Assembly: GCA_964540055.1 (NCBI GenBank)
Contig: CAZILC010000006.1
Coordinates: 8,228 to 72,227 of the forward strand
Source: an uncultured Gammaproteobacteria bacterium
GTDB lineage: Bacteria; Patescibacteriota; Microgenomatia; Levybacterales; UBA12049
Direction of reading: 5' to 3'
Length of the DNA: 64,000 bases
A program made the position numbers and the translations under genes. The notes under the pieces are model-generated. The model worked only from the letters and a program-made list of their open reading frames with translations, ran no database searches and had not been told where the DNA came from. Positions 47,608 through 57,105 of the stretch are shown piece after piece. Every line of letters starts with the position of its first letter. Within the stretch, counting starts at the first letter, position 1.

Positions 47608-48381
47608 TTACTTAAAATCTTACAGCTCAATATGAATGCAAATAACTACTGGAATACTTTAATTCCATTTCTTACCTCACATAATTTTGACATTATTAAT
47701 TTACAAGAATTAACAGGAAAAAACACAGTGAGTGGAAATATGAATTCACAAATCGATGTCTTTGAAGAATTACAAAAAATACTTTCTACTCAATACAACG
47801 GTGAACTTTCAATCAATACACGATACTCATCAGATCCCCAAAATTCATATATGGGAAACGCAATTTTTTATAAAAAAACATTTACCTTAAAAGGTGAACA
47901 TATTTTGACCCTCCATAAAAGAACTGAACCATTCCCTGCAGTACTTACTCACTATGAAGAATTAGGAAGAACTGCAATGCATTTAAAATTAGCTATTGAT
48001 GGTACAATCATTTCAATTATTAATGCTCATCTTGCCTGGGCAAAAACACCAGTTGAGGAGCCGCATCAAACAAAACAAGGAGAAAAATTCTTAGAATTTT
48101 TAAAAACAATTCACTTACCATTTATCCTAACAGGAGACTTTAATTTGGACCCTGATCAACCGCTAGTCCAAAAAATAAATAAATTGGCAAGAAATCTTAC
48201 AAGTGAATTTCATGTTACCAATACGTTAAATCCTCGAACTCATCGCGCAAAAGTACTTTTTCCAAAAGGAGTTGCAGTTGATTATATATATATTAGTAAC
48301 GATTTGAAAGTAAAAAATTTTTCAGTTATTGAGGAAGATATTTCTGATCATTTGGGATTGATTGCTGAAATAGAAATTTAA
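47605..48381 (+). CDS. Endonuclease/exonuclease/phosphatase (EEP) family protein
   Basis: ILQLNM...IINLQEL at the N-terminus, TGDFN, and a C-terminal SDH motif (DISDHLGL). Confidence 0.8.
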   Translation: MLLKILQLNMNANNYWNTLIPFLTSHNFDIINLQELTGKNTVSGNMNSQIDVFEELQKILSTQYNGELSINTRYSSDPQNSYMGNAIFYKKTFTLKGEHILTLHKRTEPFPAVLTHYEELGRTAMHLKLAIDGTIISIINAHLAWAKTPVEEPHQTKQGEKFLEFLKTIHLPFILTGDFNLDPDQPLVQKINKLARNLTSEFHVTNTLNPRTHRAKVLFPKGVAVDYIYISNDLKVKNFSVIEEDISDHLGLIAEIEI

Positions 48382-49385
48382 AGTAATCCCATTTTTTCTC
48401 TCACTTCTTTTACTGTCTCTTTAGCAATCGCGCTTGCCTTTTCATTCCCTTCTTCTATAATACGGTCAACTTCTTGAGGGTTGCTCTCCAGCTCTTTTCG
48501 TTTTTCTTGGATTGGTTGAAGTTGGTTGTAAATGGCTTGGGATAATTCCCTCTTTAAATCACCATATCGTATGCCTTCATGCTGATAGTCTTTTTCATAT
48601 TCTTTACGTTTGTCTTCACCTTGAAATAATTGTACAAAGGAAAGAAGTGCTGAAACTCCTACTGGCATTGCCTCAAGACTTCCCTTTCCAGAGTCAGTTG
48701 GAGCTTTAGCTAATTTTCCTTTAATAGTTTCCAAATCATCTGTAAGGTTAATAAAACTTCCCTCAACACTTTTACTCATCTTACCTTCCCCCGTCAAAGA
48801 TGGCACATACTCTCCAGTTGTTTTAAATGTCTGGGGTTCGGGAAAATCTGTTCCAAAATCTTGATTCATACGTCGGGCAATTTCTCTTGCAACTTCCAAA
48901 TGAGGTTCCTGATCAACCCCCACTGGCACTGATGATGCCTTATATGCCAAAATGTCAGCAGTCATTAAAATTGGATAATTCAGAAGAGCCATTGTTGAAT
49001 GTTGAGGATGTTGTTTTACTTTGTCTTTAAACGTTGGCAGATGCTGCATTTTTGCAATAGTTACGACGCTTGAAAGATAAAATGCCAATTCTGGATGATG
49101 AGGATTTGCTGCTTGCTGAAATAGTATACTTTTTTGTGGATCAAGACCTGCAGCAAGATAATCAACTATCACTTCCCGCCGATTTTTTTTTAATTCTTCA
49201 ACATTATATGGTGTCGTAATGGAATGCAAATCTGCAACCATATAGAGAGTTTCATAATCCGGATCATCTTGCAAAGCAAGCATTCCTTTAATAGCTCCTA
49301 GATAATTTCCCAAATGCAATCTACCTGTTGCGCGTATTCCTGATAAAACTCGTTTCTTCATACTGTTGTATTGTATGTCATCCAC
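48378..49385 (-). CDS. trpS: Tryptophanyl-tRNA synthetase (start 49385 or 49361)
   Basis: GIRATGRLHLGNYLGA (HIGH-type) and KMSKS (GEGKMSKSV) class I motifs. Size is typical of TrpRS. Confidence 0.95.
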   Translation of the reverse strand: MDDIQYNSMKKRVLSGIRATGRLHLGNYLGAIKGMLALQDDPDYETLYMVADLHSITTPYNVEELKKNRREVIVDYLAAGLDPQKSILFQQAANPHHPELAFYLSSVVTIAKMQHLPTFKDKVKQHPQHSTMALLNYPILMTADILAYKASSVPVGVDQEPHLEVAREIARRMNQDFGTDFPEPQTFKTTGEYVPSLTGEGKMSKSVEGSFINLTDDLETIKGKLAKAPTDSGKGSLEAMPVGVSALLSFVQLFQGEDKRKEYEKDYQHEGIRYGDLKRELSQAIYNQLQPIQEKRKELESNPQEVDRIIEEGNEKASAIAKETVKEVREKMGLL

Positions 49386-49390
49386 AAAAC

Positions 49391-50188
49391 TTATTCAATG
49401 GATAAGTCTTTGATAAATTGTTTTATTGATTCAGCTCTCTTATTTTTATTAGTTTTATTAATAACATCAATAATTGCACTTCCAACAATCGCAATATCTG
49501 AATAACCCCTTAGCATTTGAATGTGTTCTTTTTGCGAAATTCCAAAACCAACAGCAACTGGAATTGAAAAATATTTTTTTATTTTTTTAAGATAGGTCAT
49601 AAGTTGGGGATCCAATTCTTTTTTTGCGCCAGTTGTTCCTTGTTTCGCAGTGAAGTATACAAACCCTCTAGCTTGTGATGCTATTTTGCTAAGCCGTCCT
49701 TCTGTTGAGGCAGGTGAAACTACATAGATTGGATATAATTCGAACTTTTTTGCAAACGCATAAAAATGTTCATACGCTTCTTCATCAATCGGCATATCCG
49801 GAACAATCAAACCACCTGCACCTGCATTTTTTGCATCATGGCAAAATTTTCCAACACCATATCGAAAAATAGTATTATAATATGCCATAAAAAGAAGGGG
49901 TATACTAACTTCTGAAGAAAGCGTTTTCATAACTTGAAACGCATCTTTCACTTTTGTACCATTTGCCAGCGATTCTTCACATGCTCTCATAATAGTTGGC
50001 CCATCAGCCAGGGGATCTGAAAACGGAATTTGTAATTCGACAAAATCGGCCCCACTCTCAACCATTGTTTTAACAAGAGTTACTGTTTCTTCCAGACTTG
50101 GATAACCGATAACTACATGCGTCATCAGCCCCATTCGATTCTCTTTTTTTATTGCTATTAACTGTTGATCAATATTATTCATAACCAT
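49391..50188 (-). CDS. trpA: Tryptophan synthase alpha chain
   Basis: GADFVELQIPFSDPLADGPTI and the VGFGIS region. Confidence 0.9.
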   Translation of the reverse strand: MVMNNIDQQLIAIKKENRMGLMTHVVIGYPSLEETVTLVKTMVESGADFVELQIPFSDPLADGPTIMRACEESLANGTKVKDAFQVMKTLSSEVSIPLLFMAYYNTIFRYGVGKFCHDAKNAGAGGLIVPDMPIDEEAYEHFYAFAKKFELYPIYVVSPASTEGRLSKIASQARGFVYFTAKQGTTGAKKELDPQLMTYLKKIKKYFSIPVAVGFGISQKEHIQMLRGYSDIAIVGSAIIDVINKTNKNKRAESIKQFIKDLSIE

Positions 50189-51392
50189 TTTTTACTTCCT
50201 CTTTAAGAAACTCATAAAACTTTTTATCTTTAAAAGCTTTCGTCAGAATAAACAAATCCTTGTCTCCCCTACCTGATACATTTACAACAATTATTTTATT
50301 TTTAGAAAGAGACGGTGCAAGTTTTATTGCGTAAGCAACTGCGTGAGCAGATTCTAGAGCTGGAATAATTCCTTCAGTTCGTGCCAATGTTTTCACTGCA
50401 GCCAATACCTCATTATCAGATGCAGATACAAATGAAACTCTTCCAGAATCATGTAAATAACTAAGTTCCGGACCAATACCGGGATAATCAAGACCCGCTG
50501 AAATGCTATGTGTTTTTTGCAAATTTCCATCACTGTCTTGCAAAAAATATGATTTGTACCCTTCAACGACCCCCACTTTTCCGTTTAAAAACCTGACAGC
50601 ATGTTCCCCCACCTTTTTCCCTTTACCACCTGCCTCGACACCGATTAAGCTAACACTTTCTTCTTTTATAAACTTTGTAAATGCTCCCATTGCATTGCTG
50701 CCACCACCGACACAAGCTATTACATAATCCGGCAAAATTTTCTCCTGTTCGCGAAGTTGCTCTTTTATTTCTTTTCCTACAATTGACTGAAAATCACGAT
50801 TCATAGTCGGAAATGGATGTGGACCGAGCGCTGATCCAAGCAAGTAATGTGTATCTTGTACATTTTCTATCCAATCTTTTAGAGCAGCATTTACCGCATC
50901 TTTCAGTGTTTTAGTTCCTGCATCAACGGAAATAACCGTTGCTCCCAATTGCTCCATTAGAAAAACATTTGGACGCTGTCTGGCAATATCAACAGCTCCC
51001 ATATAAACAGTGCAAGAGAATCCTAATTTTGCAGCAACCGTTGCAGTTGCTACGCCATGTTGTCCAGCACCTGTTTCCGCAATCAATCTTTTTTTACCCA
51101 ATCTTTTAGCAATCAACCCCTGCCCTATGCAATGTGTTATTTTATGTGCACCTGTATGATTATGCCCCTCATTTTTTAAATAAATTTTTGCCCCACCCAG
51201 TTCTTTTGTTAGATTTTCTGCAAAAACAAGAGGAGTCGGTCTTCCAGAAAAGTTTGTAAGCAAATTCTTAAACTCTTTCTGAAACTTTGGATCTGTCTTG
51301 GCAGTCCCGTATTCTTTTTCCAATTCAATAAGAGCTGGCATCAACATTTCCGGTACATATCTTCCACCATATTGTCCAAAATGGCTTTTCAT
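50175..51392 (-). CDS. trpB: Tryptophan synthase beta chain
   Basis: FGQYGGRYVPE, HTGAHKIT (PLP lysine) and GGGSNAMG motifs. Confidence 0.95.
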   Translation of the reverse strand: MKSHFGQYGGRYVPEMLMPALIELEKEYGTAKTDPKFQKEFKNLLTNFSGRPTPLVFAENLTKELGGAKIYLKNEGHNHTGAHKITHCIGQGLIAKRLGKKRLIAETGAGQHGVATATVAAKLGFSCTVYMGAVDIARQRPNVFLMEQLGATVISVDAGTKTLKDAVNAALKDWIENVQDTHYLLGSALGPHPFPTMNRDFQSIVGKEIKEQLREQEKILPDYVIACVGGGSNAMGAFTKFIKEESVSLIGVEAGGKGKKVGEHAVRFLNGKVGVVEGYKSYFLQDSDGNLQKTHSISAGLDYPGIGPELSYLHDSGRVSFVSASDNEVLAAVKTLARTEGIIPALESAHAVAYAIKLAPSLSKNKIIVVNVSGRGDKDLFILTKAFKDKKFYEFLKEEVKNGYE

Positions 51393-51979
51393 ATTTCTAC
51401 TCCTTTCGCATTAATAATAAACTGTTTTATTTTCTGCAAATCTTCCCTGCCGTTTGTTTCAATTCCGGAAGCCACATCCACTGCAAATGGTTTCACTTTC
51501 TCAATTGCTATTGCTATATTATCCGGAGTCAAACCACCTGCAAAAAAAATAGCATTTTTTTCTGCCAGATCTTTTGCATATGTATAATCAACCATTTTCC
51601 CTTTTCCTTGAATTTTTCTATCTACGAGTAAAAATTGCGCATATATAGGTGTTATTTTTTGCATTCTGTTAATACTTTTTATTACCGGATAGTGTAACTG
51701 TTTGATGTATGTATCATCTTCATTCCCATGTAATTGAATATAATCCAAATTAAGTTTTTGTGCTATACTTTTTACTTCCCGTATGTCAGCATTTCTAAAT
51801 ACTCCCACAATTTTTATTTTACCTCTGATTTGATTAATTATCTTTAAGCTTTTTTCCGGGTCAATATATCGACCTGCTGATGGTACAAAATTAAAACCGA
51901 TAAATTCCGCACCTTCATTACTAGCAACAAGTGCTGATTCCAAACTTCGAATACCACAAATTTTTACTTTCACTTTCAT
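51389..51979 (-). CDS. trpF: Phosphoribosylanthranilate isomerase
   Basis: VKICGI...GAEFIGFNFVPS...QLHG...FAGGLTPDN pattern, and its position between trpC and trpB. Confidence 0.85.
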   Translation of the reverse strand: MKVKVKICGIRSLESALVASNEGAEFIGFNFVPSAGRYIDPEKSLKIINQIRGKIKIVGVFRNADIREVKSIAQKLNLDYIQLHGNEDDTYIKQLHYPVIKSINRMQKITPIYAQFLLVDRKIQGKGKMVDYTYAKDLAEKNAIFFAGGLTPDNIAIAIEKVKPFAVDVASGIETNGREDLQKIKQFIINAKGVEI

Positions 51980-52755
51980 ATTTTTAAATCATTTATAAAA
52001 CTTTTAATATCATTTGCTTGCATCAAACTTGTTCCAACCAAAATGCCATTAACTCCTGAATTTTTATATAATGATACCTCTTTGTGTGATGTAACTCCCG
52101 AAAATCCTAGTTTAATAAATTTATCTGGAATTTTTTCAATTAGCTTGCATGCACGTGAAATATCAACAGTAAGAGTTTCTAAATCTCTTGCGTTAACTGC
52201 GATAATATTTGTATTTGTTGTAATAGTTTTTTTTAAATCCTCATCATTATTTATTTCAACAACAGGTTCAATATGTAATGACTGACAAAGCGAAACAAAT
52301 TCACTCAATTGTTTATCATTTACTAGTCTGGCTATTAATAATAAAGCATCAGAACCGGCTCGTTTAGCTTCATAAATTTGCTTTGAATCAATAATAAAAT
52401 CCTTTTGCAATATTGGAAGCGCTACTACTTTTCTAACTTGTGCCACAGTTTCTATATCCCCCTTAAAGAAATGTCGCTCAGTTATTAACGATATAACATC
52501 AGCACCTACATCTTCGTATTGTTTTGCCCGATCTAAAAGATCATCGCGTGATCCTAAATGCAAATTTGAAGGTGATGCAAATTTTATTTCGGCTATAATT
52601 TTTAACTTATTTTTTTGTGTTTGAAATACTTCTAAAAACTTTACATTTTTTGCATATTGTCCCTCATGCACAACTTTTTTTTCAGTTTTATGAGATAATT
52701 CTTCTCTTTTGATTTTAACAATCTCTTGTAAAAAATTTTGATTTTTTTTAAGCAT
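51976..52755 (-). CDS. trpC: Indole-3-glycerol phosphate synthase
   Basis: IIAEIKFASPS, ISLITERHFFKG, ILQKDFI and AVNARDL motifs. Confidence 0.9.
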   Translation of the reverse strand: MLKKNQNFLQEIVKIKREELSHKTEKKVVHEGQYAKNVKFLEVFQTQKNKLKIIAEIKFASPSNLHLGSRDDLLDRAKQYEDVGADVISLITERHFFKGDIETVAQVRKVVALPILQKDFIIDSKQIYEAKRAGSDALLLIARLVNDKQLSEFVSLCQSLHIEPVVEINNDEDLKKTITTNTNIIAVNARDLETLTVDISRACKLIEKIPDKFIKLGFSGVTSHKEVSLYKNSGVNGILVGTSLMQANDIKSFINDLKI

Positions 52756-53764
52756 ACTTATTTGTCTCCTTTATAAGGTTTTGTAAAACATTTTTTGCGT
52801 GTCCTTTATCAATAGATTCTTCTGCCAATTTTATTCCTTGATGAACATCTTTTACCTTTCCGGAAACCAACAAGGCAAATGCACTATTCAATACCACAAT
52901 ATCGCGTCTGGCATCTTTTTTACCCGCTAAAATTTCCTTAAGAATTTCTGCGTTCTCATTCACATCTCCACCTTGTATTGTTTTAATTTTTGATTTTTTT
53001 AAACCGAATTCTTGTGGATCTATTTTTCTCCTGCTGATTATGTTCCCTTTGATTTCAAATATAGTTGTTGTTTCATGCAATCCGATTTCATCCAATCCAC
53101 TTTCTCCCGCAATAAGTATGAGATGTTTATAATCAAGATTTACAGCAACTTTTGCCAATTTTTCAGCTAACGCAATTGATGGCACACCAATAATTTGCCT
53201 TTTGACTTGGGAAGGATTTAAAAAAGGTCCTAGATAATTAAAAACAGTTCGTGTGCCAAGAGCCTTTCGTACTGGACCGATTATTTTCATTGCCGGATGG
53301 TAAATAGGTGCAAAAAGAAAAACCATACCGACAGCATCGAAAACGGCTTTTGCCTGAACTGGCGTAAGCGTAATAGTAACACCTAATTCAGATAAAACGT
53401 CTGCACTGCCGCATTTGCTGCTTGCTGCTTTATTACCATGCTTAATAACTGGAAGTCCTACCCCAGCAACAACTAATGCAACAGCTGTTGAAATATTAAA
53501 TGTTCCCAGACCATCTCCACCTGTTCCACAGGTATCAATTGCATTTATAACTTTTGGAAATGAAATACTGTGTTTGCGCATAACATGGATTAATCCGCTT
53601 ATCTCATCAATTGTCTCCCCTTTCATACGGAGTGCCACAAGCAGGGCACTCAGTTGAATTTCCGACATTTCTCCTCTTATACAACTATCTAAAAGAGATT
53701 CTATTTCAAAAGATTTCAAATCTTTTTTTTCAATTAATTTTTCAAGTAAATAAGTATCATTCAT
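52748..53764 (-). CDS. trpD: Anthranilate phosphoribosyltransferase
   Basis: DTCGTGGDGLGTFNISTA and KHGNKAASSKCGSADVLE signatures. Confidence 0.95.
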   Translation of the reverse strand: MNDTYLLEKLIEKKDLKSFEIESLLDSCIRGEMSEIQLSALLVALRMKGETIDEISGLIHVMRKHSISFPKVINAIDTCGTGGDGLGTFNISTAVALVVAGVGLPVIKHGNKAASSKCGSADVLSELGVTITLTPVQAKAVFDAVGMVFLFAPIYHPAMKIIGPVRKALGTRTVFNYLGPFLNPSQVKRQIIGVPSIALAEKLAKVAVNLDYKHLILIAGESGLDEIGLHETTTIFEIKGNIISRRKIDPQEFGLKKSKIKTIQGGDVNENAEILKEILAGKKDARRDIVVLNSAFALLVSGKVKDVHQGIKLAEESIDKGHAKNVLQNLIKETNKYA

Positions 53765-54362
53765 ATCTTTGTGTTAAAAAATTCTCAAGCATTTTTTTAC
53801 CGGCTTCTGTTGCAAAAGATTCAGGATGAAATTGTATTCCTTCAAGCGGCAATGTTTTATGCCGGATTCCCATTATTTCTCCCGTGTCCATTGCTTTTGC
53901 TGAAACTTCAAAACACTTTGGCAAACTTTTAGTTTCAATGATCAGTGAATGATAACGCATTACCTCAATGTCTTGAGGTATAGTTTTAAAAATACCTTTT
54001 TGATCATGAGAAATATTACTTACTTTTCCATGCATCGGTTTTATTGCCCGAACTACTTTACCACCAAAACAATACGCCATTCCCTGCATCCCAAGACAAA
54101 CTCCTAATACTGGAACTGTTTTACCAATCTCTATTATTACTTCTTTACAAACACCAAAATATGCCGGATCACTGGGATCCCCAGGACCAGGAGAAATAAC
54201 TATCTTGTCATACTTTCTTTTTTTAATTTGGTTCAGCGTAATTTTGTCATTGCGAAAAACATCAATAATGAAATTGATTTCTTTTTGTTGCAGTACCTCA
54301 CCAATGTATTGGTAAAGGTTAAAAGTAAAAGAATCGTAATTATCAATAAGTAACACATTCAT
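53757..54362 (-). CDS. trpG: Anthranilate synthase component II (glutamine amidotransferase)
   Basis: IDNYDSFTFNL, GVCLGMQ (catalytic Cys) and the FHPES region. Confidence 0.9.
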   Translation of the reverse strand: MNVLLIDNYDSFTFNLYQYIGEVLQQKEINFIIDVFRNDKITLNQIKKRKYDKIVISPGPGDPSDPAYFGVCKEVIIEIGKTVPVLGVCLGMQGMAYCFGGKVVRAIKPMHGKVSNISHDQKGIFKTIPQDIEVMRYHSLIIETKSLPKCFEVSAKAMDTGEIMGIRHKTLPLEGIQFHPESFATEAGKKMLENFLTQRYE

Positions 54363-55708
54363 GATTCCAATACCTCTCTCATAGCTGCTAATTTATTTTG
54401 AATTTCTTCATATTCTTTCTGTGCAACCGAATCTGCAACAATCCCTCCACTTGTTTGTGCATAGCCATAATTGTCTGAAACAAAAAATGAACGAAGAGCG
54501 AGCGCAAAAGTGCAATCACCATTAAATCCAAAATGTCCCACACCACCACCGTAAGGACCGCGAGCATCAGGTTCATTGGCATCTATAATTTTAATCGTTT
54601 CAATTCGTGGTGTTCCGCAAACAGTCGGCATCGGGAAATTACTTGCCAGACCTGAAAACATATCTTCATTCGGACGAATTAATCCTACTACTTCACTGGA
54701 AATATGCTGCACATGACTAAATTGTTTAATTGTCATAAGATTACGGACCTTTACTGTCCCAAATTTAGCAACTTTTCCGATATCATTTCGATGCATATCA
54801 ACAATCATTGTGTGCTCTGCTCGTTCTTTAGGATCATTGAGTAATTGCCGAACCAAACGTTGATCTTCTTTTGCATCTTTTCCACGCTTTATGGTACCCG
54901 CAAGTGGATTGCTCGTCATTTCACCATCCCTGAGTGAGAAAAGTAACTCAGGACTCGCACCAATTATTTTCTTATCACCGAATTTTACATAATACATAAA
55001 CGGTGAAGGATTAATACGTCGCAACCGTTCATATATCTGCAATGTATCACCGCTCACTTTATATTCTGTTTTAAAACCAACTTCGCACTGAAATGTTTTT
55101 CCTGATAAGATTAATTCTTTAACGCGGTTAACAATGGCTGCATGTTCTTCTTTTGTTAAGCTGTTTCTTATAAATTGAGCACTGAATTTTTGTGGTACAA
55201 TCTTTTTTTTCAGCATTTTATAAATAATATTGCTCCGGTCATTTTGATAATAAAAGTAAAAAACTTCATTGGTTAATTTGTCATAAACTAGTCCATCAGT
55301 ATAAACACCAAAAAGAAATTGATCGAATTTGTCATGAACTTTTGCATTGAGAGAAGTTTCAATATAATTAACTGCTTCATAACTCAAATATCCAACAAGT
55401 CCTCCTGTATATTCTCTGGTAATAGTTTTTTGTGGCATCATTTGTCGGAGAGCATCATAAGGATTTGAGACATGATATTGTATAGTATCTATCGTTAATA
55501 CATTTTCCTTTGCAGAAATTATGTTATCTGGATCAAATCCTATTATCGAATAACGCGAGAACTTCGCTTCCTCTCCAAGCGATTCATATAGAAAACATGT
55601 TGAGAACTCACTGTCAATTTTTCGAAACAATTCAAAAAAATCAATATCATCTGCTATTTTTGTATAATTCGGTTTTTGTCCGATTTTGATTTTTGGTAAT
55701 TTTTTCAT
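54359..55708 (-). CDS. trpE: Anthranilate synthase component I
   Basis: Chorismate-binding C-terminal domain (GASPELL, GTIKRG, PMPTVCGTP, RGPYGGGVG). Confidence 0.95.
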   Translation of the reverse strand: MKKLPKIKIGQKPNYTKIADDIDFFELFRKIDSEFSTCFLYESLGEEAKFSRYSIIGFDPDNIISAKENVLTIDTIQYHVSNPYDALRQMMPQKTITREYTGGLVGYLSYEAVNYIETSLNAKVHDKFDQFLFGVYTDGLVYDKLTNEVFYFYYQNDRSNIIYKMLKKKIVPQKFSAQFIRNSLTKEEHAAIVNRVKELILSGKTFQCEVGFKTEYKVSGDTLQIYERLRRINPSPFMYYVKFGDKKIIGASPELLFSLRDGEMTSNPLAGTIKRGKDAKEDQRLVRQLLNDPKERAEHTMIVDMHRNDIGKVAKFGTVKVRNLMTIKQFSHVQHISSEVVGLIRPNEDMFSGLASNFPMPTVCGTPRIETIKIIDANEPDARGPYGGGVGHFGFNGDCTFALALRSFFVSDNYGYAQTSGGIVADSVAQKEYEEIQNKLAAMREVLES

Positions 55709-55744
55709 AAATTAAAAATAAAAAACCTCTCGCTATGAGAGGTT
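55709..55744 (-). terminator. Intrinsic terminator/attenuator between the trpR-like gene and trpE
   Basis: Minus-strand RNA reads AACCUCUC-AUAGC-GAGAGGUU (perfect 8-bp stem), followed by UUUUAUUUUUAAUUU and then the trpE AUG. Confidence 0.7.
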
Positions 55745-55778
55745 CATTGTTATATTTATATACCTTTAAACACGACAA

Positions 55779-56063
55779 TCAGCCTCTCAAGGAAGACAAA
55801 TTGCGCCACCAAGTAGTTTTTTGAATATTTCCCCGTTGTATTTCTTGTGAACCGCGTGTCACAGTCGCGACACCAACACCGACCTTCTCGGCTATTTCAT
55901 GTTGTGCTGTGCCTTTTTTTAATAACTTAAAAATTTCCAAACGCTTTGGGAGTTCTTCCAATTCTTTCTGAGTTAAAAGCCCATGCAGCAAAGCATCCAG
56001 TTCTTTTTTATTTTTTACATGAATTAACGAATTAAGTAATTCTGAATATAACTGGTCATTCAT
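55779..56063 (-). CDS. TrpR-like (YerC/YecD-family) helix-turn-helix protein
   Basis: 94 aa. LTQKELEELPKRLEIFKLLKKGTAQHEIAEKVGVGVATVTRGS matches the TrpR/YerC HTH layout. It lies directly upstream of trpE and its C-terminus contains WW. Confidence 0.7.
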   Translation of the reverse strand: MNDQLYSELLNSLIHVKNKKELDALLHGLLTQKELEELPKRLEIFKLLKKGTAQHEIAEKVGVGVATVTRGSQEIQRGNIQKTTWWRNLSSLRG

Positions 56064-56082
56064 ACATACTATTATACTAGTA
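56061..56082 (-). promoter_or_regulatory. Leaderless promoter of the trpR-like gene embedded in a TrpR-operator-like palindrome
   Basis: Minus strand reads TACTAGTATAATAGTA-tgt-ATG. TATAAT sits at the centre of the near-palindrome. Confidence 0.5.
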
Positions 56083-56136
56083 TGAGATTAAGTATGCAAG
56101 GGGCAACTTTATTTATGCTTGCTGATAAAAATACGA

Positions 56137-56151
56137 TATAATACAACTATG
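56137..56151 (+). promoter_or_regulatory. -10 box with leaderless ATG (rsmB-like)
   Basis: TATAAT-acaact-ATG. Confidence 0.45.
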
Positions 56152-57105
56152 GATCAATGTAACAATCTACCTTCTCAATTGATTAATCGATGGGAAAATC
56201 TTTTTACTGAAAAAGAATATAAAAAATTATTATTCGTGTTAACAAATAAGTTAATCGCTTCTTTTCGAATCAACACTATACGTACAACTTCAGAAATAAT
56301 TGAGAGAGAATTGACAAAACAAGGCTTCGAGTTTGAGAAAGTTAGCTGGTACAAAGATGCATATATAATGAAAAATAAATCTATACGCGATTTGACAGAT
56401 ACTGAAACATATAAAAATGGCTTTATATATATTCAAAATCTTTCGAGTATGATACCCGCGCTAGTGCTGGATCCGAAGGATGATGAAAAAGTACTGGATA
56501 TAGCAGCGGCACCGGGTAGTAAAGCAACACAAATTGCAGCACTTATGCATAATACCGGTGAATTGACTGCAAATGATATCAGCTTCAAACGGCTTTTTAA
56601 GCTAAAAGAAAATTTAAAACAAATGGGAGTTACTAACGCCAAAGTATTAAATCTTGCAGGTGAATCTTTCTGGAAAAAGCTTCCTGAGTATTTTGACAAA
56701 ACTCTTGTTGATGTCCCGTGTTCTATGGAAGGCCGCATTAAATGTGATGATCCGAAAACGTATAAGGACTGGTCGACAAAAAAAATCAAGCAATTGTCTC
56801 AAATGCAAAAATATCTTCTTCGTTCTGCAGTTTCTGCAACGAAAGTTGGCGGGACCATTGTGTATTCAACCTGTACAATGGCACCAGAGGAAAACGAAGA
56901 AGTAATCGAATGGGTTGTACAGAAATCGCCAAGTGCACTCGTGGTTGAAAAAATAGAAATAGCAAACTTACAAATGCAAAAGGGACTTACTTCATGGAAA
57001 AATAAACACTACAAATATACCAGTAATTGCCAACGAATCATTCCAAGTCAAACCATGGAGGGATTTTTTATTACAAAGCTTCATAAAACTGCATCGACAC
57101 TTTAA
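56149..57105 (+). CDS. RsmB/RsmF-type (NOL1/NOP2/Sun) RNA cytosine-C5 methyltransferase
   Basis: VLDIAAAPGSKATQIA (SAM motif), DVPCSMEGR and YSTCTMAPEENE (catalytic Cys motifs). Start set at ATG 56149, 6 nt after TATAAT. Confidence 0.85.
   Translation: MDQCNNLPSQLINRWENLFTEKEYKKLLFVLTNKLIASFRINTIRTTSEIIERELTKQGFEFEKVSWYKDAYIMKNKSIRDLTDTETYKNGFIYIQNLSSMIPALVLDPKDDEKVLDIAAAPGSKATQIAALMHNTGELTANDISFKRLFKLKENLKQMGVTNAKVLNLAGESFWKKLPEYFDKTLVDVPCSMEGRIKCDDPKTYKDWSTKKIKQLSQMQKYLLRSAVSATKVGGTIVYSTCTMAPEENEEVIEWVVQKSPSALVVEKIEIANLQMQKGLTSWKNKHYKYTSNCQRIIPSQTMEGFFITKLHKTASTL

Follow-up and report, generated by a model that had tools for sequence, protein, structure and literature searches.

The window analyzed here, 64,000 nucleotides (nt) of contig CAZILC010000006.1 (positions 8,228 to 72,227 of its forward strand), carries on its minus strand a trpR-like gene followed by genes for tryptophan (Trp) biosynthesis, and an earlier note on this DNA had proposed that the 3′ end of the trpR-like gene serves as the leader peptide of a translation-coupled trp attenuator. 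All results given below were obtained by computation. The sequence features upon which that proposal had been built were all found in place on the minus strand, where the locus holds the following elements.

55779–56063, minus strand: the trpR-like gene, 94 codons plus UGA, a match to Pfam PF01371 (Trp_repressor)
55779–55814, minus strand: the C-terminal tail TWWRNLSSLRG plus stop codon, a trpL-like leader segment in apparent in-frame fusion to trpR
55806–55811, minus strand: the tandem codons UGG UGG (W85 and W86), the proposed stall site, invariant in the class-A relatives described below
55736–55789, minus strand: the predicted antiterminator, with 5′ strand 55789–55767, loop 55766–55759 and 3′ strand 55758–55736, found as both minimum free energy (MFE) and centroid structure
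55745–55723, minus strand: an intrinsic terminator, GAACCUCUC-AUAGC-GAGAGGUUU, with a U-tract to 55714, identified in a terminator scan
48378–55708, minus strand: the genes under the proposed control, trpE-G-D-C-F-B-A and trpS, eight open reading frames (ORFs) assigned by Pfam

The protein encoded at 55779–56063 matched the Trp_repressor family at 69.3 bits (E = 2.9e-19, cut-off 27) in Pfam, and in NCBIfam it scored 54.1 bits with TrpR (TIGR01321), under the cut-off of 67.25, and 37.6 bits with YerC/YecD (TIGR02531), under the cut-off of 42.2; its top sequence matches in the PDB were Trp repressors. Judged by these scores it is a divergent member of the TrpR family, nearer to TrpR than to YerC, which narrows its initial labelling as TrpR/YerC-like. 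The C-terminus reads KTTWWRNLSSLRG and then stop, encoded by the 3′ codons AAA ACU ACU UGG UGG CGC AAU UUG UCU UCC UUG AGA GGC UGA, and W85 and W86 are the sole Trp residues of the protein, both located in the tail. The eight proteins encoded downstream (TrpE, G, D, C, F, B, A and TrpS) contain, over 2448 residues, a single Trp. Within the 12 codons preceding the two Trp codons, which are codons 85 and 86 of 94, there is no in-frame ATG, GTG or TTG, and the separate short ORF that is expected of leader-peptide attenuators is absent from the window and present in relatives.

The terminator begins 34 nt past the trpR stop codon, reads (G)AACCUCUC-AUAGC-GAGAGGUU(U) followed by UUUAUUUUU, and has a G+C-containing stem of nine pairs; the number of terminator-like sites expected in shuffled sequences, using a consensus scan, was 0.5 ± 0.7. 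It stands directly before the first structural gene, with the trpE ATG at 55708 (minus strand) 15 nt beyond the stem. That no promoter would fit between hairpin and trpE, as the earlier note had argued, agreed with this distance and with the consensus scan, which found no site there. The pairing of UGAGAGG (55789–55783, abutting CUGA, with the stop codon at 55781–55779) with CCUCUCA was likewise recovered, but its description as an antiterminator of seven base pairs (bp) gave too small a size, since the predicted structure is a 20-bp interrupted helix at 55789–55736, extending over 54 nt including an inner hairpin and having an energy of −20.3 kcal/mol. Its strands are UGAGAGG.U.AUUGU.GUGUUUA (55789–55767) and UAAAUAU.ACAAU.A.CCUCUCA (55758–55736); the 5′ strand holds the final three sense codons and the UGA, the 3′ strand holds the terminator 5′ arm, and of the two alternative structures the antiterminator is the first to be transcribed.

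Folding of positions 55830–55700 gave the antiterminator as the MFE structure (z = −2.7, with 1 of 200 shuffles being as stable), and the duplex of the terminator 5′ arm with upstream sequence had a z-score of −2.25, which together with recurrence in dozens of related loci puts this pairing beyond chance. The terminator hairpin alone was calculated at −12.5 kcal/mol. As whole states, antiterminator and terminator came to −22.5 and −20.1 kcal/mol, respectively, and are thus nearly iso-energetic, because the inner hairpin fits both. Masking of the RNA 5′ of 55767, to mimic a ribosome whose A site holds UGA, allowed only the terminator, and with the RNA left free from 55795, as for a ribosome whose A site holds the second UGG, the antiterminator was obtained. 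Between the start of the second UGG and the antiterminator strand there are 19 nt, and the stop codon falls inside that strand, a geometry suited to attenuation given the generally accepted ribosome footprint sizes. Nascent-RNA folding gave just a weak hairpin over the two Trp codons. With Rfam, the Trp_leader family (RF00513) matched over its full length at 55817–55718 (23.9 bits, E = 0.0044–0.023); apart from this sub-threshold match, which serves as a lead only, the scan of the window gave generic terminator-like matches only, with nothing at a gathering score, and the T-box family (RF00230) gave no match in 55500–56300 even at E ≤ 10.

Homologues of the window TrpR were found in metagenomes as at least 92 clusters at 90% identity, and a comparison set of 160 loci, mostly from metagenome-assembled genomes of Patescibacteria/Microgenomates by record title, was analyzed by script; some of the relatives' record titles ('uncultured Gammaproteobacteria', 'Acidiferrales') look unreliable. 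A tail of the form KT(S/T)WW(R/Q/H)xLxxxRG was present in about two-thirds of the homologues, the remoter TrpR homologues stop 11 residues past the conserved TRGS motif, without a tail, and the tail was missing from TrpR homologues that have no downstream trp attenuator. By their tails, the loci could be arranged in the following classes.

Class A, ending in ..WWRxLxxxRG and stop: a AACCUCUC..GAGAGGUU terminator 30–56 nt after the stop, usually with trpE about 65 nt after the stop
Class B, ending in ..ITEKGWRPPKSGG and stop: a AACCUCCC..GGGAGGUU terminator 23–46 nt after the stop, followed by trpE or a trpB-like gene
Class C, ending in ..NWR and stop: no intrinsic terminator, with trpB 90–125 nt after the stop
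Class D, without tail: where trp genes lie downstream, a separate W-rich ORF with terminator/antiterminator

More than 25 distinct class-A loci, and loci of other classes too, shared the arrangement seen in the window. The Trp codons, the terminator and a purine-rich strand at the stop were found together in every class-A relative, including L001/L091 and L093, which the automatic terminator finder missed or mis-called (their hairpins being imperfect or out-scored) and where the element is present by eye. Class B (L007, L011, L014, L022, L094, L110, L125 and L154, ending in ..GWRPPKSGG and stop) has a single Trp codon followed by R-P-P and a stop-embedded antiterminator, GGGGGGUUA / UAACCUCCC. 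The Peribacteria locus L050 ends in KWWKSSRWRD and stop, with the arms GGCGGGAUU (at the stop) and AAUCCCGCC, then CGGGAUU and a U-tract, and L052, which has a free leader (..NWWW..), uses the strands GCGGGUGGCGU / AUGCCGCCCGC. The stem sequences of class B, L050 and L052 are unrelated to those of the window, with the layout being the same.

In an alignment of 22 class-A and free-leader sequences (A3), the antiterminator was 90.7% paired, as compared with 40–53% when the 3′ partners were slid by 1–3 columns, and compensatory changes were seen at six of its pairs, a count that was reached by 2 of 500 shuffles. A change from U-A to C-G was found in L003, where the 15-nt strand CGAGAGGUUGAUUGU / ACAAUCAACCUCUCG is fully complementary. 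The terminator was 92.9% paired across relatives. Scoring the best pairing of each terminator 5′ arm with its 82 nt of upstream sequence, we found a mean duplex z of −2.34 for fused loci (n = 30) and −2.22 for loci with a free W-containing ORF (n = 41), versus −0.30 for loci having no such ORF (n = 22; Mann–Whitney p = 6e-6 and 1.5e-5, respectively). In 25 of the 30 fused loci, the strand complementary to the terminator 5′ arm fell within −14 to +6 nt of the stop codon (binomial p = 2e-11), and the last Trp codon of the pair, or the single one in class B, starts 16–19 nt before the antiterminator strand in class A, class B and L050.

The tail also differed from the rest of the gene. Trp made up 16% of W-tail residues versus 0.17% of the TrpR core across loci, and identity at third codon positions was 0.80 in the tail versus 0.61 in codons 1–82. 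Codon 92 encodes L, M, T or V with nucleotides 2–3 (UG) constant, and the last two residues differ (RG, GG, GD, RS or RD) yet the pairing is preserved; together with the third-position identity, these are signs of constraint at the RNA level in the tail. A trpE or trpB gene within 350 nt was found for 33 of the W-tail loci and lacking for 10, compared with 28 and 74, respectively, where no W-tail was present (Fisher odds ratio 8.7, p = 4.7e-8).

The leader can also be found as an ORF of its own. In L133, TrpR ends in ..GRFKYV and stop, and the ATG of a leader overlaps that stop codon (ATGTTTGA), giving the leader peptide MFEINLSTAKTNWWDNLAPLGG and stop; beyond it follow UGGGAGGCUGAUUUUCGCGUUUAAA...UUUAAACCGUCUAAUGAACCUCUC-AAAGC-GAGAGGUUUUUUU and then trpE. 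The attenuator region of L133 has 73% nucleotide identity to that of the window (67–83% for other fused members), L124 is similar, and the tail of the window TrpR is homologous to the free leader ORFs of these two loci. Free W-leader loci also include L044, L052, L054, L080, L140, L153, L157 and L159, and unrelated free leaders were found elsewhere (MWTWWRSFISWRV, ..LLNWWWKKVYPRCGWRF, ..SIWQTWQNLEKEDLL and ..SNWQSLLNREV..), with differing complementary strands. The free leaders have 13–45 codons, and 25 of 41 begin inside or against the trpR stop codon (ATGTATAA, ATATGA), for which reason the unfused leaders, too, appear translationally coupled to trpR. From such an arrangement a small deletion or frame change suffices, judging by the sequences, for the fused form. 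By the homology to the free ORFs, what the window carries is an in-frame fusion of trpR with a leader of the trpL type; that tail and attenuator are free-standing in relatives speaks against a need for the tail in the TrpR fold.

Some further features of the relatives were seen along with these classes. Class C (L010, L023, L027, L028, L030, L032, L055, L065, L072, L098, L100, L112, L117, L126, L130, L139, L039, L048, L121 and L137) shows a small conserved hairpin, UGGCG(A/U)UAAGCC, whose loop contains the stop codon, followed by a spacer of 60–80 nt that is nearly G-free and C/U-rich, contains a conserved UAACC(C/U) and has no intrinsic terminator before trpB; it could represent a Rho-dependent or otherwise different Trp-codon attenuator. 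A W-leader attenuator without trp biosynthesis genes next to it was seen in L003, L005, L008, L083, L154, L160, L050, L013, L076 and L060, where the first ORF encodes a DUF3182 protein, an Asp/Glu racemase, a GNAT acetyltransferase or a protein with no Pfam match, and trpS is often found 1–2 kb on; these ORFs may have unrecognized Trp-related functions. Generic intrinsic terminators in these genomes take the form AACCUCC(C)-loop-(G)GGAGGUU with a U-tract (e.g. L017, L034, L042, L044, L079, L148 and L153), with arms resembling anti-Shine-Dalgarno and Shine-Dalgarno sequences.

Upstream of trpR, the following putative control elements were found.

56094–56099, minus strand: putative −35 element TTGCAT of the trpR-trp operon promoter, recognized by its conservation
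56071–56076, minus strand: putative −10 element TATAAT, with the trpR ATG 7 nt later
56065–56084, minus strand: palindrome CATACTAGTATAATAGTATG (also given as ATACTAGTATAATAGTAT) over the −10 element, a putative TrpR operator for autoregulation

The arrangement cTTGCA(t/a)-17 nt-TATAAT is kept 5′ of trpR in 13 class-A loci; its −35 element was missed by the consensus scan because just three of six bases fit TTGACA. As TATAAT lies 6–7 nt before the ATG across class-A loci, the predicted transcription start would make the trpR mRNA probably leaderless. An operator-like core, (A/G)TACTAGTA(T/C)A(A/C)TAGTA, is kept among class-A loci, and from its likeness to the ACTAGT core known from the E. coli trp operator, the palindrome is a putative autoregulatory TrpR operator. 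Within the gene, the sole consensus match for an internal promoter (TTCACA-16-AATATT at 55851–55824, 9/12) was rejected, being upstream of the Trp codons and derived from non-conserved codons (G-S-Q, versus G-S-L in relatives); promoter-like sites numbered 7, with 6.2 expected from shuffles. A conserved small ORF starting at the UUG at 55778 (43 amino acids, with GAGAGG as Shine-Dalgarno sequence) was also tried and rejected, since the spacer differs among relatives by lengths that are not multiples of three and the encoded peptide has no Trp.

With the co-occurrence of Trp codons, purine-rich strand and terminator in class A, the compensatory changes in the antiterminator and the association with trp genes, the comparative tests suggested along with the original proposal all came out in its favour, and we consider it very probable that the window holds a ribosome-mediated Trp attenuator, with the leader peptide supplied by the C-terminal tail of the TrpR-family repressor that the operon itself encodes. 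How this would operate, with regards to ribosome footprints, coupling of transcription and translation, response to Trp and operator binding, we infer as follows. Transcription would start at the promoter, probably with its TrpR operator, and give a leaderless mRNA on which the first ribosome would translate trpR behind the RNA polymerase. With ample charged tRNA-Trp, that ribosome would clear UGG UGG, reach UGA and cover approximately 55795–55768, i.e. the antiterminator 5′ strand, whereupon the terminator at 55745–55723 would form and transcription stop 15 nt before trpE, the product being a monocistronic trpR message. With scarce tRNA-Trp, the ribosome would instead stall with UGG in its A site and its front edge (about +13 nt) would stay 5′ of 55789, thereby leaving UGAGAGGCUGAUUGU... 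free; this strand would pair with ...ACAAUGAACCUCUCA once the latter had been made, sequestering the terminator 5′ arm and allowing the polymerase to enter trpEGDCFBA-trpS. Untranslated RNA would be read through by default.

We also noted that trpE has no Shine-Dalgarno sequence at the usual spacing, and that the sole purine-rich stretch upstream of it is the terminator 3′ arm GAGAGG (55726–55731), which ends 17 nt before the trpE AUG in the window and about 12–16 nt before it in relatives (by eye). The antiterminated state alone leaves that arm single-stranded, and trpE translation might therefore, speculatively, also hinge on the switch.

Several points weigh against the attenuator as proposed. 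The window element is not a member of RF00513, its score of 23.9 bits being less than the gathering score of 41. No convincing anti-antiterminator (1:2) or pause hairpin was seen in the window folds, and since no 1:2 hairpin is evident, read-through would be the default of naked RNA; once the ribosome is released, formation of the antiterminator is in principle also still conceivable. The coupling of transcription and translation in Patescibacteria is an assumed step in the model. No covariation was found within the class-A terminator stem, because its arms are nearly invariant, and support was here drawn from the comparison across classes instead; the class-A sequences are furthermore closely related, so that the shuffle statistics of the antiterminator overstate independence. 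The 28 loci having trpE or trpB near but no fused W-tail, many of which have free W-leaders, are also to be counted here. Finally, W85 aligned with W99 of E. coli TrpR using phmmer, and an AlphaFold (AF2) model of the protein had a predicted local distance difference test score (pLDDT) of 92 overall and a mean of 88 for residues 81–90, with short helices at 84–87 and 89–92 and just residues 91–94 poorly defined; conservation of the two Trp residues could therefore be partly structural. Going by the model, the Trp residues may also pack on the protein, and the two roles are compatible, so that a structural role may coexist with attenuation.

The structural points bear most directly on the alternative that the hairpin is an ordinary terminator at the end of an autoregulated trpR gene, through which part of transcription would pass constitutively into trpE, where the Trp pair would be a structural remnant of TrpR helix F and the complementarity at the stop codon a by-product of L-R-G codons that happen to resemble the terminator 3′ arm. 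The correspondence of W85 with W99 and the confident model of residues 81–90 are what such a remnant would give, but the same peptide and RNA are found in L133 and L124 outside of TrpR, as a separate ORF. A by-product of coding would likewise not be expected to keep its pairing while the end residues vary, nor to conserve the nucleotides rather than the amino acid of codon 92, nor to recur in the same layout with unrelated stems as in class B, L050 and L052. It does fit this alternative that AACCUCC...GGAGGUU terminators are generic here and stand also behind tail-less trpR genes, but there they come without upstream complementarity (z = −0.30 as compared with −2.3), and there is no space for a trpE promoter in the 15 nt between stem and ATG. 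The earlier note had held that its proposal would fall if the Trp pair were conserved in this subfamily regardless of context, and the tail was found not to be context-independent, as seen from the free leaders and the tail-less homologues. We therefore regard an ordinary terminator as unlikely.

Still less probable, in our judgement, is a genuine switch with another sensor, be it an RNA-binding protein (TRAP- or PyrR-like, or TrpR itself), uncharged tRNA in a T-box-like manner or a small-molecule riboswitch. Other sensors do seem to occupy the trpR-trp junction in this clade, since some relatives have there a T-box-like GGUGGCACC(G) motif and a terminator with a very long stem (L118:2234-2390, L115, L069, L123, L149 and L152); in these relatives the Rfam T-box model gave only 19 bits versus its gathering score of 93, with nothing reaching a gathering score. 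The window, on the other hand, gave in Rfam just the sub-threshold Trp_leader and generic terminator-like matches, its switch is merely 54 nt, without specifier or T-box motifs, and the Trp codons stand at a fixed upstream distance in all fused classes, with their enrichment in the tail being left unexplained by any such sensor. A chance coincidence of Trp codons, GAGAGG duplication and hairpin in an AT-rich intergenic region, conceivable in that the elements are individually short and that repeats of 7 nt are nothing unusual in 64 kb, can be dismissed as effectively refuted by the comparative data, i.e. recurrence in more than 25 class-A loci and other classes, positional and association p-values of 2e-11 and 5e-8, and homologous free-leader attenuators.

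Compared with known systems, the proposed attenuator most resembles E. coli trpL (RF00513). Both have UGG UGG followed by CGC, and UGGUGGCGCA of the window (55801–55811) is identical to the Rfam consensus, an identity with enterobacterial trpL that is probably due to convergence, given the phylogenetic distance. Both also have the stop codon a few codons past the Trp codons, an antiterminator strand in common with an intrinsic terminator directly before trpE, and a similar spacing from Trp codon to antiterminator strand (19 nt in the window and about 17 nt in E. coli), and in both attenuation would be paired with TrpR repression of the promoter. However, E. coli trpL is a separate ORF of 14 codons, whereas in the window the leader is made up of the final 11 of the 94 codons in a repressor gene whose mRNA is probably leaderless; and untranslated RNA terminates in E. 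coli, whereas in the window, where no 1:2 hairpin was found, read-through is to be expected. The free W-leaders of other Patescibacteria represent a homologous or analogous switch, with a W-rich peptide at the same trpR-trp position, the leader being separate there and fused in the window.

The earlier note knew of no case in which a repressor gene doubles as attenuator leader. Two systems qualify this, one of them the E. coli rph-pyrE operon, where translation of the 3′ end of the full-length rph gene and the position of its stop codon in relation to a hairpin govern transcription into pyrE (PMC2784333, which cites Bonekamp et al. 1984 and Jensen 1993). In the window, too, a full-length upstream ORF ends beside an attenuator, with a dependence upon stop codon position that would be similar. 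The signal in rph-pyrE is the UTP-dependent speed of the polymerase, in contrast to the codon-specific ribosome stalling proposed here; a close ribosome suppresses the terminator, whereas in the window a ribosome at the stop codon would favour termination by blocking the antiterminator; and the upstream gene is not a regulator of the pathway, whereas here it is the pathway's repressor. The other system is that of Chlamydia trachomatis, having trpR as the first gene of trpR-IGR-trpBA (IGR, intergenic region), with a putative, atypical and unvalidated TrpL between trpR and trpBA, and, in the YtgCR repressor precursor, a WWW motif by which Trp supply is coupled to translation and Rho-independent termination (PMC7755916). 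The effect of that motif is on the level of a trans-acting repressor, which it lowers, whereas the Trp codons at the trpR end of the window are proposed to act in cis, on a classical terminator/antiterminator before trpE. No description of a TrpR-leader fusion, or of leader-peptide attenuation in Patescibacteria, was found in the literature searched.

As a textbook mechanism, leader-peptide attenuation has been described chiefly in Proteobacteria and in a few further phyla, and going by the loci compared here it appears to be widespread, in free and fused form, in Patescibacteria, also known as the candidate phyla radiation (CPR). The window would thereby show a known mechanism in a new form, in which the repressor of the pathway has taken up the leader at its C-terminus, so that a single ORF, on a single transcript that is probably leaderless, would encode both repression and attenuation, the two levels of trp control in E. 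coli. Relatives in which the leader overlaps the trpR stop codon give a concrete picture of how evolution could pass between separate and fused leaders. For genome annotation this is a caution that attenuator leaders can hide within normal genes, and for synthetic biology the compact parts (about 400 nt) may be of use for Trp-responsive control.

It is also conceivable, though we hold this only tentatively, that the fusion is functional in itself, in that one pioneer ribosome on the leaderless mRNA, while translating the repressor, also senses Trp. If so, Trp starvation would both open the attenuator and abort the synthesis of full-length TrpR, with the output of repressor thereby gated by Trp codons, and Trp sufficiency would yield a short, autoregulated transcript of trpR only. 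In this reading, the free, overlapping and fused leaders of the clade, together with the terminator-less NWR-stop variant before trpB, which may operate via Rho or otherwise, would make up a natural series of the birth and absorption of leader peptides. To our knowledge, gene regulation and the coupling of transcription and translation have been essentially unstudied in Patescibacteria/CPR, and a functional fusion would constitute direct evidence, at the level of sequence, for tight transcription–translation coupling in these bacteria.

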